Assembly (NCBI GenBank): GCA_963836815.1
Contig: CAWILD010000014.1
Span: 31,615 to 95,614 of the forward strand
Length of the DNA stretch: 64,000 bases
DNA from: an uncultured Gemmatimonadales bacterium
GTDB taxonomy: Bacteria > Gemmatimonadota > Gemmatimonadetes > Gemmatimonadales > GWC2-71-9
Direction of reading: 5' to 3'
Position numbers and translations under genes: made by a program. Positions 18,839 through 63,912 of the stretch are shown piece by piece (the first letter of the stretch is position 1; every line of letters starts with the position of its first letter). Under the pieces are notes generated by a model, which was given only the letters and a program-made list of their open reading frames with translations, did not search any database and was not told where the DNA came from.

Positions 18839-18855
18839 CGTGCATGAATGTTCGA

Positions 18856-35354: not shown

Positions 35355-35362
35355 AAGGCGAC

Positions 35363-48976: not shown

Positions 48977-49008
48977 GGGCTCGCTATTGAGTTCTGGGAG
49001 GTGCCAAC

Positions 49009-49416: not shown

Positions 49417-49441
49417 TGGCGAACATCACGCCCAGCTCGCC

Positions 49442-49585: not shown

Positions 49586-49599
49586 GGACGCGGAAAGGC

Positions 49600-50076
49600 T
49601 CAGGCCGAGGCGGCGCGCCGATCGATCCGAGCTATGAAGCAGCCGGCCTCGGCGTTCCGCAAATGCGCATACTGAGCGGCTGGGAGCTCGAAGACCACAT
49701 CGAGGACGTCTTCGAAGCGGGCGGTGCCGACCCGCCGCTGAGCCAGGAGGGTCCCGGCCGCACCGTAGCCTTCGATCACGAGGGGTAGGGGTCTCAGCGC
49801 CTCGGGGAGTCCCCCGTCATCGTACCGCTCACAGGGGACGCGATGGATGAACACCGGCCCCGGTGCGGGCAAGGCTCCGGGATCCGTGAAAGGTTGGTAG
49901 GTGAAGAGCAGGCGCTCATCAGTCCCGACGGTGAAGGTTTGCAGGCATAGTCGGCACGGGCCGTATCCCGTTGCTACCTCGACATGGGCGGGATGGCCGT
50001 ACTGCGGCGAGCGGAGGGCGGCTCGCGCCGCCGTCGCCAGGCTGTCGGGAATGCCTTGAATCCGGTAGCGGTGCAT
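49600..50076 (-). CDS. DUF1203 domain protein (reverse-oriented in its cassette)
   Basis: MHRYRIQGIP..GYGPCRLCLQTF..ERLLFTYQPF..GPVFIH match the DUF1203 pattern as I recall it. Confidence 0.65.
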   Translation of the reverse strand: MHRYRIQGIPDSLATAARAALRSPQYGHPAHVEVATGYGPCRLCLQTFTVGTDERLLFTYQPFTDPGALPAPGPVFIHRVPCERYDDGGLPEALRPLPLVIEGYGAAGTLLAQRRVGTARFEDVLDVVFELPAAQYAHLRNAEAGCFIARIDRRAASA

Positions 50077-50149
50077 GCGGGAGCCCGGGAAGAGGTGCGA
50101 CGAAGCTAGATGCTTCGGCACGGGCGTGCCTCCCAAGTCATGCGCTCAA

Positions 50150-50270
50150 ATCGCGCGGCGCGCCACCGGTGCCGCGGGCGCGGGCGCCCGTGCGACTCCC
50201 GGTCGTCCTGACGCCGGAGGAGGTGCGCCGGGTGCTGGAGCAGATGTGGGGCACTACGCGGCTAGCGTTT
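50150..50270 (+). pseudogene. integron-integrase-like (IntI) fragment, ~40 codons
   Basis: ..[34 protein letters not shown] parallels the IntI1 segment ..[28 protein letters not shown] (from memory). No catalytic region follows, and it is cut off by the attC at 50310. Confidence 0.55.
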
Positions 50271-50309
50271 CAAGCGAGCGCTTCGCTTGGGTCAAAGGTC
50301 CCAGGTGCC

Positions 50310-50447
50310 GCCTAACCAGCGCATGCAGCCGGCAAGCGCTTCCAGGCAAGTCTCCGGTGCCCGCCACCCGCCGATGGCGGGCGGCGGAACGTAGGGTTGC
50401 TGCATGAGCGGGCGAGTCGCTTGCGGCTGATGCGCATTTCGTTAGGC
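50310..50447 (+). repeat. attC site (138 bp)
   Basis: GCCTAAC-cagcgcatgcagccggc ... cgcttgcggctgatgcgcatttc-GTTAGGC. Confidence 0.8.
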
Positions 50448-50495
50448 AGCCTTGAGATTCATTGATGCGAATCGGGTGATCAAGGAGGTGAAACA

Positions 50496-51206
50496 ATGTC
50501 GTACGTGGCAGTCGTCTTCGTCGTCGGGTTGCTCATCGCGATTCACGAGTATGGCCACCTGTTGGCGGCGAAACTGTGCGGGATCCCCGTCAAGCGATTC
50601 TCCATTGGCTTCGGGCCTAAGGTCCTCGAGGTCAAACACGGAGAAACATCGTATTGGCTCTCCTGGATTCCGATAGGCGGTTACGTCCTGCCGGCAATCG
50701 AGCAGGACGACTTCCGCGAACTTCCGGCGTATAAGCGAATCACATTTGCCCTTGGCGGTCCGATGGCCAACGTGATCGCGGCGTTCATGGGTTTATTCCT
50801 CCTCGGGCTCGCCCAGTTCAACTTGCCAGTATTCGGGGCCACATCGTTTGCCGCTACCCAACTGTGGACGGGACTGCAACAACAGATCTCTGGGCTTTCG
50901 GCGCTGGTTACTGATGTCGAGCAACTCACCGGGATCGTCGGAATCGTTGCTGTTGGAGGTGCCCAGTTCGGATCCACGCTCACCAGCTTGCTGACGTTCT
51001 CGGTGCTGATAAACCTCAGCCTGGCTGTCATGAACCTGTTGCCGCTACCTCCGCTCGACGGTGGGCGAATTCTCTTCTGCGTTCTCGAGAAGATCTACCG
51101 GCCTGTGGTCAGGGCCGAAGCTCCCTTGACCTTAGCCGGCTGGACGATGGTCTTGGCGTTGATGGTCTATCTGACGGTTCAGGATGTCGGCAGGATCTTG
51201 GCCTAG
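50496..51206 (+). CDS. M50 (site-2 protease) family membrane metalloprotease without PDZ domain (cassette)
   Basis: AAGGAGG precedes the ATG. HEYGH (HExxH) sits in the first TM region and NLLPLPPLDGG in a later TM region. 236 aa. Confidence 0.8.
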   Translation: MSYVAVVFVVGLLIAIHEYGHLLAAKLCGIPVKRFSIGFGPKVLEVKHGETSYWLSWIPIGGYVLPAIEQDDFRELPAYKRITFALGGPMANVIAAFMGLFLLGLAQFNLPVFGATSFAATQLWTGLQQQISGLSALVTDVEQLTGIVGIVAVGGAQFGSTLTSLLTFSVLINLSLAVMNLLPLPPLDGGRILFCVLEKIYRPVVRAEAPLTLAGWTMVLALMVYLTVQDVGRILA

Positions 51207-51255
51207 AGAGTATTCCAGCAGAAAACTGGATGGCGTCGTATCGGACCTGAGCGCT

Positions 51256-51341
51256 GCCTAACAGGCGCTTGCAGCCGACGGCGCGGGTATCATCGTGTGA
51301 AAGATCTGGGAGCGCGCCGCGGCTGAAGCGCGACGTTAGGC
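51256..51341 (+). repeat. attC site (86 bp)
   Basis: GCCTAAC-aggcgcttgcagccgac ... gcggctgaagcgcgac-GTTAGGC. Confidence 0.8.
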
Positions 51342-51354
51342 CTGCGAGAGACCA

Positions 51355-51783
51355 ATGATGACCACTAAGACCTATCTAGAGCCGACACAAGAGTCGGGCC
51401 GCGCATTCTTCACTCGCGGTATTTCCGGCAGCGTCGTAATGCTCAACTTGCTGCGGTTTCGTCCCGTTGCGGACTACTCAGCCACACCCGACCTCGCTCC
51501 GGCTTCGCCCATATCCGGAGAGACCGCCTACCGCCTATATATGGAGCACACTCTTCCGTACCTGAAGCAGTCCGGGGGTGAAGTGCTCTTTTTCGGCAAG
51601 GGCGGCGAGTTCCTGATTGGCCCGAGCGATGAGCGCTGGGACGCCGCCATGCTTGTGCGCCAAACCAACGTAGCTTCGTTCCTAGAGTTCGCCTCAAACC
51701 AAGAGTACCTCTCCGGCCTCGGGCATCGCCTCGCCGCGTTAGAGGATTCACGCTTGCTCCCGCTTATCGGGGAACAGGCCTAA
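51355..51783 (+). CDS. DUF1330 domain protein (cassette)
   Basis: ..VVMLNLLRFRPVADY..YRLYMEHTLPYLKQSGGEVLFFG.. The stop TAA lies inside the next attC R'' box. Confidence 0.65.
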   Translation: MMTTKTYLEPTQESGRAFFTRGISGSVVMLNLLRFRPVADYSATPDLAPASPISGETAYRLYMEHTLPYLKQSGGEVLFFGKGGEFLIGPSDERWDAAMLVRQTNVASFLEFASNQEYLSGLGHRLAALEDSRLLPLIGEQA

Positions 51784-51837
51784 CAAATCCATGCAGCCGA
51801 CGTGCGAAGCCGCACGCGGCTGATGGTGTCGTTAGGC
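51778..51837 (+). repeat. attC site, minimal 60-bp form
   Basis: GCCTAAC-aaatcc-ATGCAGCCG-acgtgcg-aagc-cgcacg-CGGCTGAT-ggtgtc-GTTAGGC. All boxes pair, with one unpaired G in the left inner box. Confidence 0.85.
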
Positions 51838-51851
51838 CGCGATCGGAAACT

Positions 51852-52247
51852 ATGGACTATGCCATCAAGCTCGTAGTTCTATCGGCGGCGACACTCGCTG
51901 CTCTCGCCGTCGGCGTCTCCGTGCTCGCGATGTATCGTCTTGTTGAGCCGCGGCGCCTCGCCATCATCTCGCTGGTATCGGCAGCCATCGCCGCGACGGT
52001 GTATCCTTGGCACGGGCTTCGGGCAGAATCCCTTCCTGCGTCGTTTCTTGTGTTCCTTTTCCTCGCCGTAACAGCTGCAGCTTCTGGTATCGCATGCCTG
52101 GCGTTGACCCGTCGGAGCGAGCACCCAGGGCTTGGGGGCCTAGAGATCGTCGTTGTGGTGGCCGTAATCGCCGCGTTGGTGCCGATGGTTCAGTTCTGGT
52201 TCGCAGGGGGCTTCGTTGCGCTTGCCCTCATCTTCGGCATGCACTAA
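51852..52247 (+). CDS. integral membrane protein, unknown function (cassette)
   Basis: 131 aa with four hydrophobic helices. Confidence 0.5.
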   Translation: MDYAIKLVVLSAATLAALAVGVSVLAMYRLVEPRRLAIISLVSAAIAATVYPWHGLRAESLPASFLVFLFLAVTAAASGIACLALTRRSEHPGLGGLEIVVVVAVIAALVPMVQFWFAGGFVALALIFGMH

Positions 52248-52273
52248 CGGTGCTGGCTATCGTCGGAACCGCA

Positions 52274-52369
52274 GCCTAACCAAGCGTTGGAGCGGTCCGC
52301 CGGAGTGCGGCGTTCGAAGGTAGTCCGCGGCATTCCGTCCGCCGGCCGCTCAACGCTCGGTCGTTAGGC
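52274..52369 (+). repeat. attC site (96 bp)
   Basis: GCCTAAC-caagcgttggagcggtccgccgg ... ccggccgctcaacgctcggtc-GTTAGGC. Confidence 0.8.
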
Positions 52370-52497
52370 GGTCGACATATGTCTTGGTCCAGGACCTCGC
52401 CGCCTGTACTTCTCTACAGCGTGCCACGCGTCGGGCATTTCTTGCGCGTTTCCCGCGATTGAGCTGGAGTCGGGGGGCAACGACCACTGGAGGCCGT

Positions 52498-52953
52498 ATG
52501 AAGGGACCTCGATATCCGGTCGGGCTTCTCCTCGTTTTGGTGGCGGCGGCATGTGGCGGCGCGCGCTCCGCGCGTACACCCACCCCGAGCCCAGGTGCTG
52601 CGCCTTTCATCGCGATCAAGGTCGACACCATGGCGTGGGGAGAGGCGAACATGCATCCGACGCTGCAGTGGTTCCGCAAGCGCCTGGTGAACGATACGAG
52701 TGCGCAGGGCATCTACGTCTCCCTGCTCCGCTATCCGGCGGGAGTGATTAACCCAAGTCACAGGCATCCGCATCCGCATGGGTTCTACGTTCTGCAGGGG
52801 CAACTAGTGACGAGTCGTGGCACCTTTGGGCCGGGAACGTTCGTCTGGTTCCCAGCTGGCGAAGTCATCGAACACGGCGCCGGCATCAAGGAGGACATGG
52901 TGGCGATCTTCATCAGCGGCGCGCCGTTCCAGATCGATTACGTGAACAGGTGA
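52498..52953 (+). CDS. cupin-domain lipoprotein (cassette)
   Basis: GGAGG precedes ATG 52498. Lipobox LVLVAAAC. ..INPSHRHPHPHGFYVLQGQLV..FVWFPAGEVIEHG. Confidence 0.7.
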   Translation: MKGPRYPVGLLLVLVAAACGGARSARTPTPSPGAAPFIAIKVDTMAWGEANMHPTLQWFRKRLVNDTSAQGIYVSLLRYPAGVINPSHRHPHPHGFYVLQGQLVTSRGTFGPGTFVWFPAGEVIEHGAGIKEDMVAIFISGAPFQIDYVNR

Positions 52954-53003
52954 GCCAGAGCACTGGGCGCTCCTACACAAGGCGGCGATTGGCCAAAGTC
53001 GCC

Positions 53004-53145
53004 GCCTAACCCGCTCATGCAGCCGACGGGCCGGAGGGGCGCGGAGTTCCGCGCGGGCGGCACCCTCCCACAGCGCCGCTAGGGAGGCCTAAGTTTGTGC
53101 GGGCGCCAGCACGAGGGCCCTCAGCTGATGCGCAAGTCGTTAGGC
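53004..53145 (+). repeat. attC site (142 bp)
   Basis: GCCTAAC-ccgctcatgcagccgac ... ggccctcagctgatgcgcaagtc-GTTAGGC. Confidence 0.8.
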
Positions 53146-53233
53146 GGCCGCCCGGCTTCCCCTCTAGGGCGCCTCTCTCTTCAGGAGGAGCTGGTCTGGC
53201 TGGTCCGTTCACCACACTGATTTCGGAGATCCA

Positions 53234-53614
53234 ATGGGTCGGCAGATTGTCTCTACATCGAAGGCGGCCAAGCCACCCGCAACCTACAGCCAGGCAGTGA
53301 AGGCCGCGGGCCTTGTGTTCGTCTCGGGCACAGCCCCGGCCGACCCTGCAACGGGCGGTTTGGTCGGCGCAACCATCCAAGAGCAAACACGGCAGTGTCT
53401 GACCAACATTGCCGCCATCCTACAAGAGGCCGGCAGCTCGCTTGAGAAGATTGTGAGTGCGACGGTGATTCTGGCGGAAGAGGAGGATTTTGGAGGCATG
53501 AATGAGGAATGGGTCCGATGGTTTCCCTCTAACCCTCCGGCTCGCCAAGGCGCCAAACTGCCTGTGCGGGTTCCCGGTCTGAAGGTCTCGATTGCCGCCA
53601 TTGCCGAGGCATAG
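53234..53614 (+). CDS. ridA: RidA/YjgF family reactive-intermediate deaminase (cassette)
   Basis: ..YSQAVKAAGLVFVSGTAP..TIQEQTRQCLTNIAAILQEAGSSLEKIV..PARQGAKLPV.. is the typical RidA pattern. Confidence 0.8.
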   Translation: MGRQIVSTSKAAKPPATYSQAVKAAGLVFVSGTAPADPATGGLVGATIQEQTRQCLTNIAAILQEAGSSLEKIVSATVILAEEEDFGGMNEEWVRWFPSNPPARQGAKLPVRVPGLKVSIAAIAEA

Positions 53615-53705
53615 GGGCCTTGATCCGCGTCTGGGCGGTCCCACTCGGCACTATCGGTCGCATTCGCTTCGGGTAAAGCGAGGGCGGGTATCCCCAACCG
53701 CGGCC

Positions 53706-53834
53706 GCCTAACCCGCAAATGCAGCCGACAAACGCGGCCTGGCCCGAACTCCGGTGATTGGCAGCCCTCCCAGAGGCGGTAAGGAACGTAGGTTTTTCTC
53801 AGGTCGTTTGCAGCTGATTTGCATTTCGTTAGGC
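53706..53834 (+). repeat. attC site (129 bp)
   Basis: GCCTAAC-ccgcaaatgcagccgac ... gtttgcagctgatttgcatttc-GTTAGGC. Confidence 0.8.
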
Positions 53835-54211
53835 GGCGCAGTCACCGCTCGTGGCAAGTACCAACGGTCGAATGATTCATCCTCGCGTTCGGCAGTAACC
53901 TTCTCTGCTCCGCGAAGCGACATCCGAAGCAGCCTCTCAACGACCGCGCCAAGCTCTGGGTACCTTCCCCGGTCTCGCATCATCCAGGCTCTGCTCAGCT
54001 CTCGTCCATTGCGCCAGATCGTGAAGGTTCGAACGTCCTCATCGCTGTCCAACACGTATCGAGGCTGAGCTGCTGCTAGTTCATCTGCATGTGCATCTAC
54101 CCGCAACCAGAACGCAGCCAACTCTGCTTCTTCCGCCTTCCCCTGCACGTACGTTGTGACCAACCGAGACGGACACCGGAGAGGGACGATCGTTCCGTCG
54201 TCCCAAAGCAC
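53708..54211 (-). CDS. hypothetical protein; 3' end of ORF reads through the attC
   Basis: 167-codon ORF. The first ~120 codons look coding (..FTIWRNGRELSRAWMMRDRGRYPELGAVVERLL..). The last ~40 are antisense attC sequence. Confidence 0.4.
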   Translation of the reverse strand: MLWDDGTIVPLRCPSRLVTTYVQGKAEEAELAAFWLRVDAHADELAAAQPRYVLDSDEDVRTFTIWRNGRELSRAWMMRDRGRYPELGAVVERLLRMSLRGAEKVTAEREDESFDRWYLPRAVTAPPNEMQISCKRPEKNLRSLPPLGGLPITGVRARPRLSAAFAG

Positions 54212-54277
54212 GGCGAGCGGCTGGTATCGCGGTCCAGACCGGAGCCCGGGTGGCCCAGAGAGCGCCGGCGTGATGCC

Positions 54278-54901
54278 TTAGACGGTGCGGGGTCGCCACG
54301 GCTCGTGCTCGTGCGCGAGCCAGACCAGCTCGGGGTCGAGCGCGCGCACCCGCAGCTGGCCTTCGGTGTGCGGCTCGTCGAGCTCGCCAAACCAAACCGC
54401 CACGTCGCCGCCAACGACGACCGGGCGCCCGCCAGTCTCGACGACGACGACCTGCATGCCGCGTGTGTGGCCCGGCGCCGGGACGAGCCGGAGCCCGGGA
54501 AGCAGCTCGAGTTCGCCGTCGACCGGCACGTACCGCACGCCGGGCGCCTCGACCCACTCGCGAATGGTGTAGTCGTCCTCGTTGCGCGCGTCGTCGAGCT
54601 CCCGACGCTGGACGTAGATCGGCCTGCCGGCGAAGAGGTGGTTGCCGCCGCAGTGGTCGAAGTGCAGGTGTGTGTTGACGACGATGTCGATGCCGGCGAG
54701 GTCGAAGTTCTGATTGCTCAGTGGACGGAGGCGGGGATCGAGGTCGGCCACCGCCGGGTGCAGCTCCGTCATGCCGGTGTCGACCAGCACGCGCGCATCG
54801 GGATGGTCGATGACGTGCACGTAGACCGGCATCCGCTCGCCCTCGGCGAGCAGGTCGGCAACGCGGACTGGCGTGATGGTGATTGAGGCGAGGGCGTTCA
54901 T
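54278..54901 (-). CDS. MBL-fold metallo-hydrolase (lactonase-like)
   Basis: THLHFDHCGG (HxHxDH), ..PAPGHTRG.., ..GDV... 207 aa. Confidence 0.8.
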   Translation of the reverse strand: MNALASITITPVRVADLLAEGERMPVYVHVIDHPDARVLVDTGMTELHPAVADLDPRLRPLSNQNFDLAGIDIVVNTHLHFDHCGGNHLFAGRPIYVQRRELDDARNEDDYTIREWVEAPGVRYVPVDGELELLPGLRLVPAPGHTRGMQVVVVETGGRPVVVGGDVAVWFGELDEPHTEGQLRVRALDPELVWLAHEHEPWRPRTV

Positions 54902-55416
54902 TGAGGACCGACCGCCGTGGTGGTGGCTGATTTCATCGCGATCACGTGCTCCACGAACTGATCGACGGCGATCTCGGTGCCCTGGTAGAAGCCCGACGCT
55001 TTGTTGTTCTCGAGGTCCGCTTCATCCCGGTGCAGCGCCGTGAAGACGTAGCGAGTGCCGGTTCCCACGGTTTCCATCGTAATGATGGCGGTAATCGGAA
55101 TGTCGTCAAAGACAGCCGGACGATAGCCGGGGAACAACATGGAGGTCCAGACAAGTCGCTCCATCGGAAGCACTTCCAGGAAACAGCCGAGGTTGGGAAC
55201 CTCCTGACCGTCTGCCATTGCGATGTCGATGCTGAAGATGCCGCCCGGTCGCACGTCCATTTCGGTTCGCGACACACGCCCCCAAGGCTTGGGCATGTAC
55301 CACTCCTTCAGATGCTCCGGTTTGGTCAACGCTTCCCAGACGAGCCGCGTGGGAGCGTCGATGAACCGTTCGATAGCGAAATCAAGTTTCGGATTGAGCG
55401 TGAATTGCTTGCTCAT
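54898..55416 (-). CDS. SRPBCC (AHSA1/START-like) domain protein
   Basis: ATG 55416 overlaps the arsR-like stop. ..IERFIDAPTRLVWEALTKPEHLKEWY..GGIFSI... ArsR-SRPBCC is a common gene pair. Confidence 0.7.
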   Translation of the reverse strand: MSKQFTLNPKLDFAIERFIDAPTRLVWEALTKPEHLKEWYMPKPWGRVSRTEMDVRPGGIFSIDIAMADGQEVPNLGCFLEVLPMERLVWTSMLFPGYRPAVFDDIPITAIITMETVGTGTRYVFTALHRDEADLENNKASGFYQGTEIAVDQFVEHVIAMKSATTTAVGPQ

Positions 55417-55766
55417 GATTCTGATTCCTTGTCCTTGAGTTGTTTGACGTATTGGTCGAACCGGTCCAGTCGAGCTTCCCACAACTGACGACGCGCGGTC
55501 AGCCAGTCTTCAACGACCTTGAACCGTTCGGGTGCGATCTCATACGTCCGCACTCGGCCGCGCTTTTGCGACCGCACCAGTCGGCTCTGTTCGAGCACCG
55601 AGAGGTGCTGCACGAACGACGGGAGTTGCATGTCGAACGGTGCCGCCAGTTCGCTGACGGTGGCTGGTCCGACAGACAGTCGCTCCAGGACTTTCCGCCG
55701 CGTCGGGTTGGACAAGGCGTGAAACACGTCGTCAGCGGCTGCGGAGTGAACCATTTGCGACACCAT
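55413..55766 (-). CDS. ArsR/SmtB family transcriptional regulator
   Basis: ..VFHALSNPTRRKVLERLSVGPATVSELAAPFDMQLPSFVQHLSVLEQSRLVRSQKRGRVRTYEI is a winged HTH of the ArsR type. Confidence 0.85.
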   Translation of the reverse strand: MVSQMVHSAAADDVFHALSNPTRRKVLERLSVGPATVSELAAPFDMQLPSFVQHLSVLEQSRLVRSQKRGRVRTYEIAPERFKVVEDWLTARRQLWEARLDRFDQYVKQLKDKESES

Positions 55767-55975
55767 CCAAATGCTCGGGTTATCCGATCTGACCGAGAGA
55801 TTCTACAGCCATGGAATACTTCTGTCAATACCTAAGTATTTGCCATGATGGAAGCGCGGCCCCCCACGCAGAGACAAGAGCTCCGGCGAAGCCGGTTTCC
55901 CTTCATCGACTGGACTGCGACCTTTGCTGGCCGGGATGCAGTCAGGGCCGCGCATGGCGAGCGCTTCGCTCTGCG

Positions 55976-56074
55976 GCCTAACGAACGTTGCAGCTGACAA
56001 GCGATCTGATGATTGCGCCACGCTGCGCGCGGCGCTTCTATTGACTCGCTTGCAGCTGAACTTGGGCGTTAGGC
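55976..56074 (+). repeat. attC site (99 bp)
   Basis: GCCTAAC-gaacgttgcagctgac ... cgcttgcagctgaacttgggc-GTTAGGC. Confidence 0.8.
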
Positions 56075-56205
56075 CGACACTACGGACATCTTGTCTTCGC
56101 AAGCGCGCTATAGCAGCGGAAGTCCGCCCCACGGTAGGCGACACGCCAGATCACTGACCGCCACGTTGAATAACTCGCACGGGCAGGCGAGTAGGGAGAT
56201 GGATC

Positions 56206-56532
56206 ATGCCGCTCTATCTATCGCGCTTCAGCTATACGCCGGAGACATGGGCCAGATTGATTCGGAAGCCCGAGGACCGCCGAAAGGCCGCTCAGACGTA
56301 TATCGAGTCGGTTGGTGGAAAACTCCATGGGTTCTGGTACGCCTTCGGGACACATGACGGCTACAACCTCTGGGAGGCCCCCGACAACGTGTCCATGGCC
56401 GCGGTTGCGATTGCGATCAGTGGCGGTGCTGCGCTCAGCTCCTTCGAAACGACGGTCCTCCTAACCGTCGACGAAGCGATAGCCGCCCTTCGGAAGGCCG
56501 AGCAAGTCAGCTACCGGGCACCCGGTGCGTAG
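56206..56532 (+). CDS. GYD domain protein (cassette)
   Basis: MPLYLSRFSYTPETWARL..ESVGGKLHGFWYAFGTHDGYNLWEAPDN matches the GYD family pattern. Confidence 0.7.
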   Translation: MPLYLSRFSYTPETWARLIRKPEDRRKAAQTYIESVGGKLHGFWYAFGTHDGYNLWEAPDNVSMAAVAIAISGGAALSSFETTVLLTVDEAIAALRKAEQVSYRAPGA

Positions 56533-56549
56533 CGTATCAGGCGCGTGCG

Positions 56550-56689
56550 GCCTAACCCGCGCATGCAGCCGACGGGCCGGAAATGTCCCGGGGCTCCGCC
56601 CGGGCGCAGCGTCCCGTGAGGACGCTGCGGAACGTAAGTTTGTGTGGCACGGGCATGATGGCCCGCAGCTGATGCGCAAGTCGTTAGAC
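56550..56689 (+). repeat. attC site (140 bp)
   Basis: GCCTAAC-ccgcgcatgcagccgac ... ggcccgcagctgatgcgcaagtc-GTTAGAC. Confidence 0.8.
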
Positions 56690-56740
56690 GGCGCGTCCCC
56701 CCTTCTTGCTCGCCCGTGCTGACAGAGTGACTTTGCCCTC

Positions 56741-57299
56741 ATGGCGCGAACCATCCTCGTGATTCACGGTGCTGGGGAGCCCCGGCGGCGGCGAGGCAAG
56801 GTGTATTGGGAGTCGCTACTCGAGGAAACTCTGGGGCGGGGCTATCGCGTCCAGGCACCACGCATGCCCCGGCCAGAGCACCCACACTACTGGACTTGGG
56901 CTCGCCGTATCGATGAACTCATGGGGAGTACTCGCGCGCCTATCCTTGTGGGTCATTCCTTCGGAGCTTCGGTGCTTCTAAAATATCTCGCGGAGACTGT
57001 GCGCCGCCCTGCTTTGGCTGGCCTGTTTCTGATCGCCACGCCATTTCTGGGGGCCGGACTTCCCGGAGTTTGCGCTACCGCCTGACTTCGGGACGCGCCT
57101 CGGTGACCTATCGCCTATCTATCTGTACCACAGCCGGGACGACGCCGAGGTACCGTTCGAGCATCTGGAGCGCTATCGGCGTGCCCTCCCTTACGCCACG
57201 GTGCGGGCTCTGGACGATCGCGGCCACGAGTTCAATCAGGCGCAGTTCCCGGAACTTGCGGCCGATATTCGCGGCCTCGGGCCGCGGCGCGCCGTCTAA
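56741..57299 (+). CDS. alpha/beta hydrolase (YdeN/RBBP9-like) cassette; one frame break
   Basis: ILVIHGAGE.., nucleophile elbow VGHSFGA. After a shift at 57044-57053: ..YLYHSRDDAEVPFEHLERY..DDRGHEF... The stop TAA lies inside the next attC R'' box. Confidence 0.7.
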
Positions 57300-57426
57300 C
57301 CCGCGCATGCAGCCGACAAACGCGGGGCGCCGCAGTGGCGGCCCGCGAGCCACGCTCCGCGTGGCCATTCAGTGGAAGCGTTTGTTTGTAGGGTGTCGTT
57401 TGCAGCTGATGCGCATTGCGTTAGGT
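57294..57426 (+). repeat. attC site (133 bp)
   Basis: GTCTAAC-ccgcgcatgcagccgac ... gtttgcagctgatgcgcattgc-GTTAGGT. Confidence 0.8.
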
Positions 57427-57501
57427 GGCCACGAGCAACCGTGGCCAGGTGAGCGGTTGTGACGTTTCGGCGCCGCTCTGACTCTGAAGCAGGAAGGCAC
57501 C

Positions 57502-57879
57502 ATGAACCACTTCGCTTGGCCGGAGCAGGTGGCCACCCTGAACAACATGCTAGATATCCTTGAAGGACAGGTGACGGCCGGGGATGTGGGCACGCCCGGC
57601 TTAGCTGAGTTCAAGAGCGCTCTCGACGATTTGCGGCTCCGGACTTGGGGTCTGCTCACGGCGATCAACGCGGATGATCCCCACGCGTTTCAAGAGCGGT
57701 TTCGCACCCACCGGGGAATCGAGATGTGCCGTGCCCTCACCACCGACCTGCGGACGGGCAAGCTGAGCAGTCGCCAACCGGACCTGCCGGCCCTGGGCGG
57801 CGCAGCGCGGGATCTATCGGCCGCAGTGAAGGAGGCGACGCGCAAACCTTCGAAGCGACGCGGCAAAGGCGCCGTCTGA
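57502..57879 (+). CDS. hypothetical helical protein (cassette)
   Basis: AGGAAGG precedes the ATG. 125 aa. No family recognised. Confidence 0.45.
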   Translation: MNHFAWPEQVATLNNMLDILEGQVTAGDVGTPGLAEFKSALDDLRLRTWGLLTAINADDPHAFQERFRTHRGIEMCRALTTDLRTGKLSSRQPDLPALGGAARDLSAAVKEATRKPSKRRGKGAV

Positions 57880-57888
57880 GCGCCGGCG

Positions 57889-58029
57889 GCCTAACCCGCG
57901 CATGCAGCCGACGGGCCGGACCTGTCCCAGGCTCCGCCCATGCGCTTCGTCCCTTGAGGACGAAGCGGAACGAATGTGTGTGTGGGCGCGAGCATGGATC
58001 GCCTGCAGCTGATGCGCATTTCGTCAGGC
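57889..58029 (+). repeat. attC site (141 bp)
   Basis: GCCTAAC-ccgcgcatgcagccgac ... cgcctgcagctgatgcgcatttc-GTCAGGC. Confidence 0.8.
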
Positions 58030-58050
58030 TGACCCAAACAGGTGGACTCA

Positions 58051-58488
58051 ATGGATGAGTTTCTCCAGGCCGCTCTCGAGGAAGCGAGGCAGGGCCTTGC
58101 CGAGGGCGGCATCCCAATCGGCGCTATCCTCGTGCATTCTCGGGGGATCCTCGGGCGTGGACACAATCAGCGAGTGCAGCGTGGCAGCGCCGTTCTTCAC
58201 GCGGAAATGGACGCGCTGGAGCGAGCCGGCCGACTGGCAGCGCCTGTGTATCGGGCAAGCACTCTGTACACCACACTTTCACCCTGCGCGATGTGCAGCG
58301 GGGCCATCCTCCTCTACGGCATTCGGCGCGTGGTGATCGGCGAAAACCGCACGTTCCGGGGCGAGGAGGAGCTGCTGCGCTCGCGCGGGGTGCTGGTGGA
58401 AGTTGTCGATGATCCTAGCTGTGCCGCCCTGCTTGCGGCTTTCGTGCGCGCGCACCCGGAGTTGTGGAACGAAGATATCGGCCACTAG
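58051..58488 (+). CDS. CMP/dCMP-type zinc deaminase (cytosine/guanine deaminase-like) cassette
   Basis: HAEMDAL (zinc His/Glu) and SPCAMCSGA (PCxxC). ATG 58051 is preceded by AGGTGG. GTG 58042 is an alternative start. Confidence 0.8.
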   Translation: MDEFLQAALEEARQGLAEGGIPIGAILVHSRGILGRGHNQRVQRGSAVLHAEMDALERAGRLAAPVYRASTLYTTLSPCAMCSGAILLYGIRRVVIGENRTFRGEEELLRSRGVLVEVVDDPSCAALLAAFVRAHPELWNEDIGH

Positions 58489-58499
58489 TGAAGCGGGCA

Positions 58500-58524
58500 G
58501 CCTAACCCGCGCATGCAGCCGACG
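58500..58524 (+). repeat. attC site, left part (split by insertion)
   Basis: GCCTAAC-ccgcgcATGCAGCCGACG is followed directly by the left terminal inverted repeat. It continues at 62261. Confidence 0.8.
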
Positions 58525-58557
58525 GGGGTATAAAGATAACTCGAAAAAATGTCAGTA
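58525..58557 (+). repeat. left terminal inverted repeat
   Basis: ggggtataaagataactcgaaaaaatgtcagta. A second GATAACTC lies 20 bp inside. Confidence 0.75.
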
Positions 58558-58663
58558 GCGCTATTCGGATAACTCATCACGCTCCAGCAGCTACCGCGGT
58601 GTATGCTGGCGATCTCATGCCGGCGAAGACAGATTTCGAGCATCCCCTTCATATGGCTTGGCC

Positions 58664-58940
58664 GTGACCGACGTGACGGCCTCCGCATTGGCCAACGCCC
58701 TTCGCGATCGCTACCGCCTTGAGCGTGGCTGCGGACGCGGCGGGATGGCGACGGTGTATCTTGCCGAGACCTGAAGCACGGCCGCGAGGTCGCGCTCAAG
58801 GTCCTTCGCCCGAAGTGGCCGCGGCGCTCGGTACCGAGCGGTTCCTGCAAGATCCATATCAGCGCCCGGCTCGACCACCCCCACATCCTCACCTTGATAG
58901 ACTAGGGCCAGAAGACGGTTGGTGTGGTACGTACTGCGGT
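58664..58940 (+). pseudogene. Ser/Thr kinase N-terminal fragment (frameshifted, stop-containing)
   Basis: ..[22 protein letters not shown]|..[23 protein letters not shown].. is readable only by switching frames. It is paralogous to the N-terminus of the kinase at 19367-22274. Confidence 0.65.
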
Positions 58941-58989
58941 TAGGCATCTTTTAGGAACGGTAGCAGCGATGCAGGGGTAGTGAAGCTCT

Positions 58990-59870
58990 ACTGATGCACG
59001 GCAGGCGGAGCGATCCATCCTGGCCGCGGCGAGCTGGTTGGCGAAGGGCCGCTGGACGTGGTAGCGCCAGGTATCAGCAATACAGCCTTCGTTGGGGTCT
59101 TTCTCGGGCTAGTGCTCGTGCTCGTGCTCTTCCACCTGTTCTCATCAATGGGGTACTCAGGACTCGGATAGTGTGCTCAGCACGTGCTCTGAGGCCTTCG
59201 AATGACCACTCTCCCTTCTTCATCGAGGAAATACAAGCAGTAGCGCTTTGCGGAGATCATGTAGCCGCAGAGGTCACGCGTTTGCTCGCGTACGTGTTCT
59301 CTTTCTCGAGCTTCAGGAGAGAACCACTCACCACGGGCCGTACGGGTTGAGGCTGTCCAGGCGCTTGATGATCTTGTTGACGCAGCCCAGCTAAGGGCAC
59401 GTATCGCTGGCCGACCATCGCGCTTCTTGTAAGGCCGACAGGGACAGGGTACGAGCTCACCCCGCCGGGAGGCTACAATGGCTATGGAATCTCTGTCGGT
59501 GAACAGGTAGGTCCCACGGCGGCTGTCACCATCCGCTCGATAATCGCGAGCATGAGCCGCGCCGCGCGTTCGTGATCCAGGCTGCCAGCGGCGTGGAAAC
59601 AGAACTCCCCCGGATCCTCCGGGTGCTGGGTTTGACAGCTGAAGGCCCCCTCTCTCTCCATGGCCCCGGACTCGGGCCGGTTTCCCTGGGGCGAGCGATC
59701 GCGGATCGAACTGGGCAAAGACGCCGTAGCTGCCGCTGTTAGCTATCACCTTCAGCAACTTCTCCACCCGCTGGCGCTCACGCGGACTGATTTTGGCGTC
59801 GGGTAGGCTCTTGATCCGATGGCGTTCCTCGATCACATGGTCGGCGAGGAACACCTGGCCGCCGCTAAGC
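58990..59870 (-). pseudogene. family B DNA polymerase remnant (protein-primed type), palm/thumb region only, multiple frame breaks
   Basis: In N-to-C order on the minus strand: KLLKVIANSGSYGVFAQ (motif B, Kx3NSxYG), ..AARLMLAIIERMV..GTYLFTDRDSIAIV (motif C, degenerate YxDTDS), ..GYMISAKRYCLY.. (KxY), ..KASEH... At least 5 frame switches are needed. The N-terminal exonuclease half is absent. Confidence 0.65.
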
Positions 59871-59926
59871 GTGAGCTGGACGAGGGGCTGCGGGACCAAT
59901 TTCTCCATCACCCCCCAGGAGGAGCT

Positions 59927-60400
59927 ATGCGTGCCGAACAACAACTTGCTGATCACCTCTGGTTTCTCAACTCGCTTGTGCGCATCCGAGTGGCCCATTC
60001 CGCCGGAGCCGACGGATTCTCCGTCATCGAATTCCAGGCCCCATTCGGCGATTCACCACCCCTGCACATTCACTACATGGAGGACGAGTTGTTCCATGTC
60101 TTGGAGGGTGAGTTCCGCTTCACGATCGGAGGCGAGGAAATGCGCGCTGGCCCGGGTGAGCTGATTCTGGCTCCGAAGGGCGTACCTCACACCTTTCGAA
60201 TCGAATCCGCCGCTGGAGGTCGCTATCTAATCGTGACCACGCACGGCGATTTCGAACGCTTTGTCCGGGAGCTGAGCCGCCGGGCCGAGCGTGCGGAATT
60301 GCCAGCACCTTCAGGACCACCTACTCCAGAGCAGATCCAGGCGCTGGGTGCCGCGGCCATGCGCCACAACGCCGAGATTGTGGGCCCCCCGCTCACTTGA
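59927..60400 (+). CDS. cupin domain protein (cassette captured inside the element)
   Basis: CAGGAGGAG precedes ATG 59927. ..SPPLHIHYMEDELFHVLEGEF..LILAPKGVPHTFRI.. Followed by an attC lacking its left end. Confidence 0.7.
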   Translation: MRAEQQLADHLWFLNSLVRIRVAHSAGADGFSVIEFQAPFGDSPPLHIHYMEDELFHVLEGEFRFTIGGEEMRAGPGELILAPKGVPHTFRIESAAGGRYLIVTTHGDFERFVRELSRRAERAELPAPSGPPTPEQIQALGAAAMRHNAEIVGPPLT

Positions 60401-60416
60401 TCTCGACCCTGTGTTT

Positions 60417-60527
60417 CGGACGGTCCCGAGCTCCGCTCGGGCGCCGCGTCCCTTTAGGACGCGGCGGAACGAAGGATTGTGCGGGCGCGGCCATGATCGC
60501 CCGCAGCTGATGCGCATTGCGTTAGGC
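60417..60527 (+). repeat. attC site lacking its left (R''/L'') end
   Basis: cggacggtcccgagctccgctcggg..ggaacgaaggattgtgcgggcg..cgcccgcagctgatgcgcattgc-GTTAGGC. Confidence 0.65.
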
Positions 60528-60613
60528 GGACGCGCGAGCATCTTGGTAGGATAAGACACGACTCGCATCACTATCGCGGATACGTGCATGCATTCAGGCC
60601 TAATCGTTTCTGA

Positions 60614-62041
60614 TTGCGACGGCACCTTGGTCGACAGCAAACCCGGCGCGAACACGGTCTGGCTGGAAGTCGCTGCCGAGTGACTCATATTCCATTTGCC
60701 ACCACCGGCGCCTACCCGGTACGTGCGGGCAATCGCGTCCACCCGCTCATTGATGGCGAGCCTGCATTTCGCCGGGTTTGTGACGCCATTGATCAGGCCC
60801 TAGCGCGCGTGTGGGTCGCCGTCACGTTTCTCTGGGCCAGCTTTCAGATGCCCGATGGTCGCGGTTCGTTCTTTGACGTACTGACACGAGCGCGCCAGCG
60901 TGGACTCGACGTCCGGGTGCTATTTTGGCGACCCGATGATGCGACCGCACATCTGCGGACTAATGCGTTCTGGGGGTCGCCCGCGCATGTCGCGCTGCTG
61001 GAGCAGCAGGCATCGGAGATCAGCATTCGCTGGGATCGCGCGCACCCTGGATTCTGTCAACATCAAAAACTCTGGCTCATCGACGTTGGGTTGGAAACGG
61101 CCTGTGCGTTTGTCGGTGGCATCAATCTCAATCCCCATTCGGTGGTTGCCCCCGGCCATCGTGGCGCTAAACACAATCACGACATGTATCTCGAGATCAG
61201 CGGTTCGGCAGTCACAGACGTCCACCACAACTTTGTGCAACGCTGGAACGAGGCCAGCGAACGGGACGAGGCGGACGGTCGGTGGGGACCCGATGCTGAT
61301 CGCGATCTCGCCTTTCCAGACCGGGTCGCGGCGGTACGTGGATCCACCGTCGCCCAAGTGCAACGGACGATCCATCCTGGCCGCTACGCCAACACCCACC
61401 CCACTCCCGGCGGGGCTCCGTTTGCCATCGCCGACGGTGAGTTCTCCAATCGCGACCAGTACATCCATGCCATCCGCGCTGCCCGTGAGTATATCTATCT
61501 TGAGAACCAAGCCATCAGTGTGCGGCCAATCCTTGAAGAGCTTGTAGCCGCGGTGAAGCGCGGCGTGGCGGTTGTCCTAGTGTTGCCGACCGTGGCCAAC
61601 AGCATCGACGCACCTGCGGATCCCCACGGCGAGCTGTTCCGTGACGAACGCCGCACGCTGGCGCGCACGTCGCATTTCACTCTAGCAGGACTGGCCGGAC
61701 CAGATGCCAGTGGCGCACGCCAACCCGTTCACGTGCATGCCAAACTTATGATCATTGATGATGTCTGGGCGACGGTCGGCTCCTGCAACCTCCACCGATA
61801 TTCCATGTATGGTAACAGTGAGCTCAACATCGCCTTCGCCGATGCGGTGACGGTGCGCGCATTACGCTGCGAACTCCTAGCGGAGCATCTCGATCAGGAC
61901 ACATCCGCGCTCGATGGCCGATCGGCGCTCTGCGTGTTTCGGACCGTGGCTGAGCAGAATGCGGGTCGCCGGGACGGTGGAGATCCCGACTGGGAAGGAA
62001 TCGCCTGCGCGATGGATCCACTTCAGTGGTGGGCAAGCTGA
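60614..62041 (+). CDS. phospholipase D / HKD-superfamily protein (cassette inside the element)
   Basis: Two HKD motifs: CQHQKLWLIDVG..GGINL and HVHAKLMIIDD..VGSCNL. GTG 60680 is a plausible alternative start. Confidence 0.8.
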   Translation: MRRHLGRQQTRREHGLAGSRCRVTHIPFATTGAYPVRAGNRVHPLIDGEPAFRRVCDAIDQALARVWVAVTFLWASFQMPDGRGSFFDVLTRARQRGLDVRVLFWRPDDATAHLRTNAFWGSPAHVALLEQQASEISIRWDRAHPGFCQHQKLWLIDVGLETACAFVGGINLNPHSVVAPGHRGAKHNHDMYLEISGSAVTDVHHNFVQRWNEASERDEADGRWGPDADRDLAFPDRVAAVRGSTVAQVQRTIHPGRYANTHPTPGGAPFAIADGEFSNRDQYIHAIRAAREYIYLENQAISVRPILEELVAAVKRGVAVVLVLPTVANSIDAPADPHGELFRDERRTLARTSHFTLAGLAGPDASGARQPVHVHAKLMIIDDVWATVGSCNLHRYSMYGNSELNIAFADAVTVRALRCELLAEHLDQDTSALDGRSALCVFRTVAEQNAGRRDGGDPDWEGIACAMDPLQWWAS

Positions 62042-62102
62042 ACGGCGCGATCGTCGGCCGGTCAATGACAAGGAAGAGAACCCTAATATCTCGAATGGCG
62101 CC

Positions 62103-62145
62103 ACCTAACCCGCTAATGCAGCCGACAATCGCGGGCGGTTCGGAC
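62103..62145 (+). repeat. attC left end (R''/L'') truncated on the right
   Basis: ACCTAAC-ccgctaatgcagccgacaatcgcgggcggttcggac, then unrelated sequence. Confidence 0.6.
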
Positions 62146-62164
62146 TTCTTCGGATCGATAGCCG

Positions 62165-62204
62165 GGTGAACTAGCTACCCCTCTCTGTCTCTTAACCCCT
62201 CGAA
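62165..62204 (+). repeat. single arm of the 22302-22385 palindrome family
   Basis: ggtgaactagctacccctctctgtctcttaacccctcgaa, compared with ggtgaacagcggcaggctatctatctcttaacccttcgaa. Confidence 0.5.
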
Positions 62205-62227
62205 CGTTTGAAGGCTGGCTGAAGGGG

Positions 62228-62260
62228 TACTGACATTTTTCCGAGTTATCTATATACCCC
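62228..62260 (-). repeat. right terminal inverted repeat
   Basis: tactgacatttttccgagttatctatatacccc is the reverse complement of the left repeat with 2 mismatches. Confidence 0.75.
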
Positions 62261-62388
62261 ATGCAGCCGACGGGCCGGACCTGTCCCGGGCTCCGCCCAG
62301 GCGCTTCGTCCTTGGAGGATGAAGCGGAACGTAGGTTTGTGCGGGCGGCAACCTGATGGCCCCGCAGCTGATGCGCATGTCGTCAGGC
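62261..62388 (+). repeat. attC site, right part (continuation of 58500-58524)
   Basis: ATGCAGCCGACGggccggacctgtcccggg ... cccgcagctgatgcgcatgtc-GTCAGGC. Confidence 0.8.
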
Positions 62389-62496
62389 AGCGAGAAGACC
62401 CTATGATGCAATCAGGGGTCATGACAGTGAGGCTGCTTCCGACAATCACCGAACTTGGCGTCGCTAGGGCTCGGCTGTTGCAAACGAGGAGGAGCC

Positions 62497-63210
62497 GTGA
62501 CTGGCAAAGAGAAGGGGAAGTCAGTTAACCGAACCGCACGAGTCGCAGGGTTCCTGTATCTCCTTGTGTTCCCATTCGCCATCTTCAGCTTGAAGGTGCG
62601 GGACACACTCATTGTACCCGGAGATGCCGCAGCAACAGCCAGTAATATCATGGCTTCCGAAGGGCTGTTTCGTGGCGGCATTGCTGCCTGGCTCCTTAGC
62701 CAGACGATCTTCATATTCCTGCTCCTGGCCTTATACAAGCTGCTCAAGCCGGTCAACCGGAACGTTGCTTTGCATATGGTCGTACTGCTCCTGGTTGGTG
62801 TGCCTATCGCGTTGATCAACGAGCTCAACCAGTTTGCCGCCCTGCTGCTATTGAGCGGCGCCGACTACCTGACGGCGGTCGAAGCAGGTCAGTTGCATGC
62901 TCAGATGATGTTTCATCTCGATCTGCACGAATACGGGATCAACATCGCCCAGATCTTCTGGGGCCTCTGGCTGTTGCCCTTCGGTTATCTGGTTCTCAGG
63001 TCGGGTTTCCTTCCCCAAATTCTGGGCGTCCTATTAATGATTGGATGTTTCGGGCATCTGATGGATGTCGTTACAGCCGTGGTTTTTCCCAACTTCGACG
63101 TAACAGTGACTCAGTTTACCTCAATAGGGGAATTCCTACTTCCCTTGTGGTTGGTGGTTAAGGGCGTAGATGTCAAGCGGTGGGAAAGCCGTGCCCTTGA
63201 ACCTGCCTGA
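62497..63210 (+). CDS. DUF4386 family membrane protein (cassette)
   Basis: GAGGAGGAG precedes GTG 62497. ..ARVAGFLYLLVFPFAIFS.. and six hydrophobic helices. The ORF track start of 62455 is less likely. Confidence 0.65.
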   Translation: MTGKEKGKSVNRTARVAGFLYLLVFPFAIFSLKVRDTLIVPGDAAATASNIMASEGLFRGGIAAWLLSQTIFIFLLLALYKLLKPVNRNVALHMVVLLLVGVPIALINELNQFAALLLLSGADYLTAVEAGQLHAQMMFHLDLHEYGINIAQIFWGLWLLPFGYLVLRSGFLPQILGVLLMIGCFGHLMDVVTAVVFPNFDVTVTQFTSIGEFLLPLWLVVKGVDVKRWESRALEPA

Positions 63211-63297
63211 ATGGGCCGGCTGCAGAATGGACGGGGATTTTCGTTGGCAGTAAGGGAGCTGTGGGTGGACCAGCCGCGACCATCGCGCCGGCTCGCT

Positions 63298-63404
63298 GCC
63301 TAACCCGCGCATGCAGCCGGCGGGCCCGGAGGAGCGCTGGCCTCCGCTCGGCCTTGTGCGCGGGTCGGCTTGATGGCCCGCAGCTGATGCGCATTCCGTT
63401 AGGC
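63298..63404 (+). repeat. attC site (107 bp)
   Basis: GCCTAAC-ccgcgcatgcagccggc ... ggcccgcagctgatgcgcattcc-GTTAGGC. Confidence 0.8.
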
Positions 63405-63437
63405 CGCAAGTCGTAGACAGCAGCGAAGGGGGAGCTC

Positions 63438-63863
63438 GTGCTCGTTTCGGGTCGGCTGTCGCGGGATGGTGCTACGTTGCGCAGGATCGCCCTGGCCTAT
63501 CCCGAAGCCTATGAAGAGATGCCCTGGGGCCATCACGCGATCAAGGTGAAGGGGAAGGCCTTCGTCTTTCTGGCGGCGGACCAGGCGACGTTCTCGCTCT
63601 CCGCCAAGCTGCCCTCGTCGGCCGGGGTGGCCCTCCAACTCCCGTTCGCGTCGCCGACAGAGTACGGCCTAGGGCGCAGTGGGTGGGTGACGGCGCGGTT
63701 TCCCCGGACCGCCCGGTTGCCGGTCGACATCCTCGGCATGTGGATCGACGAAAGTTATCGCGCGCTCGCGCCAAAGCGCCTACACGCGCAGCTAGAGGAC
63801 GCCTCGGCACCGGGTGCACCACGCAGTCCCAGGACCAGGAAGAAGCCGGCAAGCCGCCGCTGA
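63438..63863 (+). CDS. MmcQ/YjbR family protein (cassette)
   Basis: AAGGGGGAG precedes the GTG. ..[39 protein letters not shown].. is the typical YjbR pattern. Confidence 0.7.
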
Positions 63864-63870
63864 GCTTGCA

Positions 63871-63912
63871 GCCTAACCCGCGCATGCAGCCGACTGGGCC
63901 GGCCCAACCGGG
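63871..63912 (+). repeat. truncated attC (left end only)
   Basis: GCCTAAC-ccgcgcatgcagccgactgggccggcccaaccggg. No R' is found before the next gene start. Confidence 0.55.

Follow-up and report, generated by a model that had tools for sequence, protein, structure and literature searches.

Remnant of a family B DNA polymerase, probably of casposon origin, in an attC array of a Gemmatimonadales bacterium

Casposons are transposons which integrate by means of a homologue of Cas1, the casposase, and which carry their own family B DNA polymerase (PolB) for copying themselves. In families 2 and 3 the core set consists of Cas1, PolB, an HNH protein and a helix-turn-helix (HTH) protein, and PolB itself bears a C-terminal HTH (PMC4046053). 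Family 3 is the bacterial one, known from Streptomyces, Henriciella, Hyphomonas, Citromicrobium, Nitrosomonas and Acetothermum; its published member NitAL212-C1 has the terminal inverted repeat (TIR) GGGGTATGTTAAC... and a target-site duplication of 14 nt (PMC4046053). The polymerases of both families have been classed as being of the RNA-primed type (PMC4046053, PMC4779613), the casposon polymerase cluster named PolB_CDTDS after its motif C is related to the main PolB group and to the pPolB group (PMC7544198), and tandem casposons with head-to-head copies have been described (PMC4779613). In the literature we searched, bacterial casposons are described as intergenic only, without any link to integrons, and attC, the integron recombination site, is unreported as a target. 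Here we analyse a stretch of 64,000 nucleotides from an uncultured Gemmatimonadales bacterium (contig CAWILD010000014.1, positions 31,615 to 95,614; hereafter the window, with positions counted from its first letter), in which a sequence-only reading had noticed, at 58990-59870, a decayed PolB of a mobile element within a bacterial cassette array. We find that this piece is very probably a dead internal PolB fragment of a bacterial casposon of the family 3 type.

Intact relatives of the polymerase, found in other genomes, share with the family 3 casposons (NitAL212-C1, HenMar-C1, StrAlb-C1 and CitBat-C1; Krupovic et al. 2014, 2016) the set of Cas1, PolB, HNH and HTH, the C-terminal HTH of PolB, termini beginning with GGGGTAT or GGGGATA, duplications of about 14 bp and a part of the hosts (Actinomycetota, and Alphaproteobacteria including Sphingomonadales and Citromicrobium); for family 3, polymerase genes with numerous stops and tandem copies placed head to head are described as well. 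The copy in the window differs from these elements in being devoid of Cas1, HNH, HTH and about 70% of polB, and in sitting in an attC whereas the published ones are 'intergenic'. Moreover, Gemmatimonadota are not among the published hosts in the accessible literature, and kinase genes, as well as attC sites or cassettes, are found as cargo in the relatives of the window's lineage. With the PolB_CDTDS cluster (Kazlauskas et al. 2020), represented by the family 2 casposon polymerase of Aciduliprofundum boonei, the relatives share the motif C CDTDS; that cluster is likewise too divergent for PF00136 and is linked to the main PolB and the protein-primed groups, as our fold search also shows. However, this named published member is archaeal and was compared by description only, and in the window motif C is mutated to TDRDS.

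The polymerase remnant and its intact relatives

The remnant is placed as follows.

~58946..59880, minus strand: family B DNA polymerase pseudogene, probably of the casposon type, PolB_CDTDS group (frameshift-aware alignment and tblastn)

Both methods, applied with the relatives described below, show that this is an internal piece, covering residues ~500-800 of a protein of about 1000 amino acids (aa); only about 30% of the polymerase length is left. The motif strings quoted by the sequence-only reading are all present on the minus strand in N-to-C order: motif B (KVIANSGSYG), a degenerate motif C (FTDRDS) and the KxY motif (SAKRY), to which an SEHxL motif can be added. In the alignment, motifs B, C and KxY match the relatives column for column, and motif C, which is FCDTDS in the family, has kept both aspartates while its threonine has become an arginine. 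The four strings had been said to spread over three frames with stops. The homology path does use all three frames, but three of the strings, KLLKVIANSGSYG, GTYLFTDRDSIAIV and GYMISAKRYCLY, share a single one, which is that of a 273-aa open reading frame (ORF) at 59177..59998 of the minus strand; a second frame contains AARLMLAIIERMV, and the third contains other homologous pieces such as VNKIIKRLDSLNPYG. Frameshift-aware alignment counted no fewer than 10 frameshifts and 3 in-frame stops, where about 5 frame breaks in 0.9 kb had been announced, and the remnant extends slightly beyond the limits first given to it. No N-terminal exonuclease domain (Exo I-III), no motif A and no C-terminal part of ~220 aa were found in the window, the homology ending at about residue 500.

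The flanking genes of 148-475 aa (deaminase, cupin, phospholipase D (PLD)-like and DUF4386) are intact, with full-length Pfam matches. Hence, the frame breaks reflect local decay and not a general assembly error. One could still imagine a functional gene whose frame breaks stem from errors of sequencing or assembly: indels are frequent relative to substitutions, and the adjoining kinase fragment, which has decayed at a similar rate (4 frameshifts and 1 stop in 273 bp), is nevertheless 75% identical to its relative. As about 70% of the protein is missing, motif A and both the exonuclease and the C-terminal domains included, as motif C is altered and as the neighbours are intact, the chance that this is so is negligible. 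The remnant has no present function, and the view of a genuine decayed family B polymerase pseudogene from a mobile element holds; what remained appears to have drifted as non-coding DNA, at about one frame break per 70 bp.

The polymerase fragment, taken as the ORF or as a hand-stitched translation, has no polymerase match in Pfam and nothing at all in PHROGs; its identity as a polymerase therefore came from the relatives alone. In a database of 5.8 billion proteins, the stitched translation found 33 relatives with E values down to 3e-47 (the window's own ORF P0001, at 2.8e-80, being excluded), and intact relatives match the window by tblastn with E values down to 3e-26. This means that the homology is far beyond chance. 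Aligned, the 33 relatives display motif A (DFxSMYPTV), motif B, CDTDS, SAKRY and SEHGLG, and their C-terminal extension is long. When bacterial species were scanned with a single genome each, 179 confirmed relatives were obtained, hosted by Gemmatimonadota, Actinomycetota, Chloroflexota and Alphaproteobacteria, cultured strains among them; in these species-representative genomes the ORFs are mostly intact, with about 900-1230 aa. The intact proteins have Exo I-III (FDTETT, GFNLPFD, YxxxD), the motif A given above, motif B, CDTDS as motif C, KxY and a C-terminal HTH. One full-length member, used as query, returned no fewer than 3038 proteins with E <= 1e-10, almost all of them unnamed, and the family is annotated as 'hypothetical protein', often without a Pfam domain. 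The absence of any PolB profile match in any frame had been proposed as a refutation of the polymerase. For the fragment this absence is what was found, but the test is too strict, since 34 of 40 full-length relatives match PF03175, mostly weakly (best E 1.1e-9), while none of the 40 matches PF00136 (E <= 0.01). Another polymerase fragment of the family, on the contig of relative P0026 (L002), lies amid IS66, IS110 and three tandem tyrosine recombinase genes, a further case of these polymerases persisting as debris in transposon-rich regions.

The sequence-only reading had assigned the polymerase to the protein-primed, phi29-like type, and the remnant could accordingly descend from a phage, a linear plasmid or a polinton-like element. 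The matches to PF03175, which is the 'organellar and viral' profile, and the lack of matches to PF00136 point in this direction. The AlphaFold model of one intact relative (predicted local distance difference test score 86.7, predicted template modelling score 0.88) has 50 listed fold matches in the PDB, all 50 to family B polymerases, among which Pol alpha (E 3.7e-13) and phi29 polymerase (E 1.3e-12, template modelling score 0.54 on the target) are interleaved. The presence of phi29 polymerase near the top thus speaks for the protein-primed type, but Pol alpha matches at least as well, and all 13 weak matches of a core-alignment profile to PDB sequences are to Pol alpha (a profile of the full-length alignment gave nothing useful against the same sequences). 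The relatives are moreover proteins of about 1000 aa with a C-terminal HTH, encoded beside Cas1, the fragment has no phage match in PHROGs, and the casposon polymerases of families 2 and 3 are classed in the literature as of the RNA-primed type or as a separate CDTDS cluster. We concluded that the family is genuine PolB, about equidistant from the RNA-primed and the protein-primed groups; the protein-primed type is not established, and a phi29-like origin of the remnant is quite unlikely.

The neighbourhood of the relatives is more telling. We clustered the ORFs around 62 genome loci of polymerase relatives. At 52 of them, an HNH-like ORF of ~135 aa and an HTH-like ORF of ~196 aa come immediately before the polymerase, and Cas1 is found upstream, usually divergently transcribed. 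Cas1 neighbours score 145 and 100 bits against PF01867 and often have a C-terminal extension with a zinc-binding part and an HTH. Two conserved modules run through Pfam (L003 and L058) contain no tyrosine recombinase. These observations bear on the pipolins, which had also been named as a possible source. Pipolins are bacterial and integrate into chromosomes, and their polymerases are weakly caught by PF03175; piPolB is likewise a highly divergent PolB of about 1000 aa borne by mobile elements. However, piPolB is defined by SxTTDG at the place of motif C, where the window shows TDRDS and its relatives show CDTDS, and by KH-X8-KTRG at the place of KxY, where both show SAKRY (motifs of piPolB from PMC5695915), and the conserved neighbour of the relatives is Cas1 instead of a tyrosine recombinase. 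The motifs set the pipolin aside, and we consider such an origin highly improbable. Of the four sources named by the sequence-only reading (casposon, pipolin, Polinton-like element, linear plasmid), it is the casposon which is picked out, by the module of Cas1, HNH-like, HTH-like and PolB, by the terminal repeats and by the duplication of 12-14 bp.

Terminal repeats around the remnant

The remnant lies in a shell of 3.7 kb (58527-62260) between inverted repeats of 32-38 nt, the 38-nt pair being 89% complementary. The features of its two ends are listed here.

58500..58526, plus strand: interrupted attC, left part (R''-L'' arm; attC family alignment and arm map)
58513-58526, plus strand: target-site duplication, copy 1, ATGCAGCCGACGGG (last 12-14 nt of the left attC part)
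58525..58562, plus strand: left TIR GGGGTATAAAGATAACTCGAAAAAATGTCAGTAGCGCT (its G run overlaps the duplication)
62164..62228, minus strand: inner degenerate TIR-like unit GGGGTTAAGAGACAGAGAGGGGTAGC... with the 26-nt spacer CCTTCAGCCAGCCTTCAAACGTTCGA (comparison with L001, L086, L113, L166 and L173)
62223..62260, minus strand: right TIR, reverse complement GGGGTATATAGATAACTCGGAAAAATGTCAGTACCCCT (inverted-repeat search)
62261..62395, plus strand: interrupted attC, right part, with the R' core GTCAGGC at its end (62260-62388 is 84% identical to the complete attC 57901-58029; repeat family D11)
62261-62274, plus strand: target-site duplication, copy 2, ATGCAGCCGACGGG (start of the right attC part)

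Behind its L'' arm, the attC beginning at 58500 is interrupted by GGGGTATAAAGATAACTCGAAAAAATGTCAGT; the inverted copy of this sequence ends at 62260, where the attC resumes, and ATGCAGCCGACG(GG) is found on both sides of the shell. The terminal repeat has only two copies in the window, where none is expected by chance. The terminus can be written as GGGGTATA(A/T)AGA(T/C)AACTCG(A/G)AAAAATGTCAGT, and junctions of this kind would read attC(1-27) followed by GGGGTATA on one side and TATACCCC followed by attC(14-end) on the other.

The intact elements which surround the relatives span 7.4-18 kb. In Gemmatimonadota and Actinomycetota, wherever the ends are clear, the TIR begins with GGG or CGGG and is accompanied by a perfect target-site duplication of 12-14 bp: L007 has the TIR GGGTTAGTAGATAACGCGCTGAAAACGACC and the duplication CTCCAGCGTATCAC, and L044, L047, L027, L008 and L079 are alike. 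At the alphaproteobacterial loci, the repeat GGGGTATAG / GGGGGGTATAGTGATAGG... is located just inside a short hairpin at each end. The repeat of the window shares GGG(G)TA..GATA..AAA.GTC with the termini of intact elements having both Cas1 and PolB (for example L007, L008 and L079), and GGGGTAT with the terminus of NitAL212-C1.

The closest polymerase relative is held by the Logan contig L001, in an element of 13.95 kb which has the same terminus at both ends and whose polB has the same orientation relative to them as in the window. Cas1, kept from residue ~104 on the minus strand, meets PolB, kept from residue ~620 on the plus strand, at 7485-7487 of this contig; a single deletion took both 5' halves plus the HNH and HTH genes. 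The element of L001 also encodes a 1668-aa NACHT protein. Taking together the termini, the duplication, the ends of the intact relatives, NitAL212-C1 and L001, we read 58527-62260 as a casposon shell, which cannot move by itself. Remnants of Cas1, HNH and HTH, or extra termini, were sought across the whole window and gave only noise.

Metagenomes were then scanned with 19 nt of the terminus, which gave 99 hits: about 74 belong to an unrelated AT-rich repeat, about 10 are single unrelated matches and 14 are high-GC contigs with the full terminus. The AT-rich repeat (L083-L181, ~74 contigs from several related samples, mostly Ga0056123) is at least 120 nt long, has a very high copy number and contains the exact 19-mer AACTCGAAAAAATGTCAGT followed by GTTTAAC, which fits the inverse-core pattern RYYYAAC of attC sites. 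We set it aside as a casposon terminus, as the rest of the terminus is absent from it, and take it for an unproven chance match amplified by copy number.

These contigs give some weight to the idea that the inverted repeats come from another attC-targeting transposon or from a regulatory module, and that the polymerase is unrelated debris caught between them. Indeed none of the 14 high-GC contigs has a casposon gene, Cas1 and PolB remnants being found only in L001, which was fetched separately; the repeat often stands ~135 nt upstream of kinase genes; and its reverse strand, read directly, contains a sigma-70-like CTGACA-N17-TATACC. Nevertheless, an inverted pair is seen in two cases, the window and L001, and it is in precisely these two that the most closely related remnants of the polymerase occur, oriented alike. 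The sequence shared with the termini of L007, L008, L079 and NitAL212-C1 ties the repeat to intact elements having Cas1 and PolB. The duplication of 12-14 bp fits casposons, whereas IS1111-attC elements are reported without any. Lastly, two contigs, L163 and L001, have head-to-head copies of the terminus 12-13 nt apart, which matches the tandem casposons (PMC4779613); in L163, the two facing termini are separated by 13 nt of ATGCAGCCGAC-type sequence, as in tandem casposons with a shared duplication. We consider it unlikely that polymerase and repeats are unrelated.

One end of these elements (window 62164-62260, L166 ~70-292, L001 28-130, L086 ~524-615, L113 and L173) is made of two or three direct units of ~60 nt, each consisting of a TIR-like sequence of ~34 nt followed by a conserved segment of ~26 nt, CCTTCA.CCA.CCTTCAA.... 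The inner unit of the window, 62164-62228, is the second unit of such an end; its nhmmer match is weak and limited to 62168-62199. A conserved CCTTCAACC..CCTTCAA outside some termini had been considered as a target site, and was rejected once the ends were seen to consist of two or three direct units. These units may be multiple casposase-binding sites, and it is curious that they look like repeats and spacers, since casposon termini have been proposed as the source of CRISPR arrays.

Contents and history of the shell

Within the shell and on its two sides, the following were found in addition to the polymerase.

58042-58488: deaminase gene, intact, outside the shell (Pfam)
58664..58936, plus strand: N-terminal fragment (residues 1-93) of a Ser/Thr protein kinase, pseudogene (75% identity to a relative, 4 frameshifts and 1 stop)
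59927..60400, plus strand: cupin-domain gene, intact (Pfam Cupin_2, 58 bits)
60416..60534, plus strand: right-hand part of an attC (middle and L'-R' arm, GTTAGGC; repeat families D5, D6 and D10)
60614..62041, plus strand: PLD-like gene (phospholipase D superfamily), intact, apparent cassette (Pfam PLDc_2, 91.6 bits)
62100..62163, plus strand: left ~64 nt of an attC, truncated at the inner terminal unit (attC alignment and arm map)
62455-63210: DUF4386 gene, intact, outside the shell (Pfam)

The shell has a mosaic interior; from left to right it contains the terminus, a leader of ~100 nt, the kinase, PolB on the opposite strand, the cupin gene, a part of an attC, the PLD-like gene, another part of an attC, the second terminal unit and the terminus. 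The arrangement of TIR, leader and kinase is also present in five metagenome contigs (L094, L112, L146, L148 and L173), in three of which (L112, L146 and L148) the kinase is intact. Since it recurs in this way, the kinase is cargo of the lineage. The kinase of L022, tried as a marker of the same terminus, was rejected because its N-terminus and leader differ. No attC boundary separates the cupin gene from the polymerase remnant, to whose upstream end it is fused; a longer cupin ORF, from 59819, overlaps the remnant, and this position is probably not the true start. In the arm map, the attC at 60416 is without its left ~28 nt, and the R arm at 60503-60527 is without an L arm at the usual 80-117 nt. 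At 60401-60417, TCTCGACCCTGTGTTTC replaces roughly the left arm of this attC, including the 14 nt which form the casposon duplication elsewhere. The arm may have been lost by simple deletion, or its absence may be the trace of an element which once inserted there and was excised.

Arms of attC sites are also seen inside the intact casposon L007 (3255-3279 and 4636-4660), whose element is flanked by a duplication, and inside L001 (11518-12986), L086 (1467-2785, with three complete cassettes on the inner side of the terminus) and L113 (695-1088). Cassettes in these casposons are therefore not unique to the window, and the lineage seems to carry integron cassettes as cargo.

The following history can be proposed for the casposon. 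Cas1 would have cut the L'' arm of an attC at ATGCAGCCGACGGG, in a staggered manner with about 14 bp between the two cuts, and the casposon would have integrated there. The original order would have been terminus, kinase, (...), PolB, HNH, HTH, Cas1, (...), terminus, and PolB would have replicated the intact element. One set of deletions would then have removed the C-terminus of the kinase along with that of PolB, another the N-terminal half of PolB along with HNH, HTH and Cas1, after which the leftover DNA would have decayed neutrally.

Several points weigh against the reading as a casposon and against this simple history. As Cas1, HNH and HTH are undetected in the window, the assignment of its copy to the casposons derives from homology, that of its polymerase and that of its termini. 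The likeness to the published family 3 casposons is one of gene set, motifs and termini. Eleven of the 14 other terminus-bearing contigs are shorter than 5 kb, but the lack of casposon genes extends to L112 with its 14.5 kb. The 14-mer of the duplication is part of the conserved attC arm, also present in four other attC sites of the array; the direct repeat alone is therefore no proof of a single insertion, and two insertions followed by a rearrangement would look similar. The interior has attC fragments and two intact cassettes, which are not expected in a simple casposon, and the left attC part at 58500-58526 would form an attC of normal length with the partial site 60416-60534. Hence, the shell may have arisen either by a single insertion with cassette cargo or by two insertions and subsequent deletions, and the cupin and PLD-like cassettes are either original cargo or were brought in by a later rearrangement.

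attC sites as a possible target

The cassette array described by the sequence-only reading is real: between 48.8 and 64 kb of the window, the arm map and the attC alignment reveal a regular array of attC sites of ~80-150 nt on the plus strand. The remnant, however, is not bounded by a complete attC (R''...R'), as it lies between the terminal repeat which splits an attC and the cupin gene. It is not itself a gene cassette, but is inside an insertion which splits an attC. Arms of the same attC family are found in separate clusters of the window, in both orientations (17461-19263 on the minus strand, 23679-23703, 34729-36028 and 48839-63894). No integron integrase was found among the ORFs of at least 200 aa to the left of the main array (44.5-49 kb); the clusters may be integrase-less (CALIN-type), or the integrase may be located elsewhere.

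The position of the terminus within the attC was compared in the metagenome contigs. In L146 and L148, the terminus comes after GCCTAACCCGCGCATGCA(G/C)C(C/T)GAC(A), exactly as at 58526, and these two left junctions follow cassettes which differ from each other and from that of the window; in L094 and L163, it is the other junction which is present, followed by ATGCAGCCGAC as at 62261. These four contigs come from four different metagenomes. The recurrence of one position suggests, though it does not prove, that integration into attC is site-specific and that there exists an attC-targeting casposon lineage. A fixed position and orientation in the attC sites of cassette arrays is known from the IS1111-attC insertion sequences and from the group IIC-attC introns. 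These make use of DEDD transposases or of reverse splicing, and are not known to have long TIRs or a duplication of 12-14 bp, or to carry a polymerase or Cas1. A fuller proposition, for which we see the balance as even, is that a bacterial casposon lineage, probably of Gemmatimonadota, inserts site-specifically into the L'' arm of attC with a duplication of 12-14 bp and carries attC-bounded cassettes as exchangeable cargo.

The alphaproteobacterial casposons L055, L057, L058, L063, L067, L069, L071 and L078 have each entered the apex of a GC-rich hairpin, which in some cases is terminator-like, and their duplication of 14-16 bp is itself palindromic (for example CCGGTTTTTGCCGG in L055, CCGCAGCGATGCGG in L067 and CCCGCGAAGGCGGG in L069). 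This suggests that the casposase of the family prefers hairpin or palindromic targets. Together, the attC junctions, the attC arms inside the elements and the insertions at hairpin apices hint at a preference of family 3 casposases for structured or palindromic targets.

We also note that a tRNA gene (16073-16156) and a c-di-GMP-I riboswitch (cyclic di-GMP; 26681-26799) of the window pass the Rfam gathering thresholds.

The object is most probably a decayed member of the casposons, and its attC target and its cassette cargo are the parts worth following. With 179 hits in species-representative genomes and more than 3000 metagenome proteins, the bacterial distribution of the casposon polymerase family goes far beyond the few family 3 elements published so far; the family includes Gemmatimonadota and Chloroflexota and is missed by current annotation. 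The locus also shows that cassette arrays gather debris of other mobile elements, which matters for the automatic annotation of arrays. What it presents is, in all likelihood, the remainder of a Cas1-dependent transposon inside an integron recombination site. If an attC-targeting lineage exists, it would couple Cas1-based integration to the capture system of integrons, and a true attC preference would provide a short, defined and structured DNA target for testing the site choice of bacterial casposases. This choice bears on how Cas1 came to recognise CRISPR repeats, and a preference for structured targets would be of interest for the origin of that recognition.

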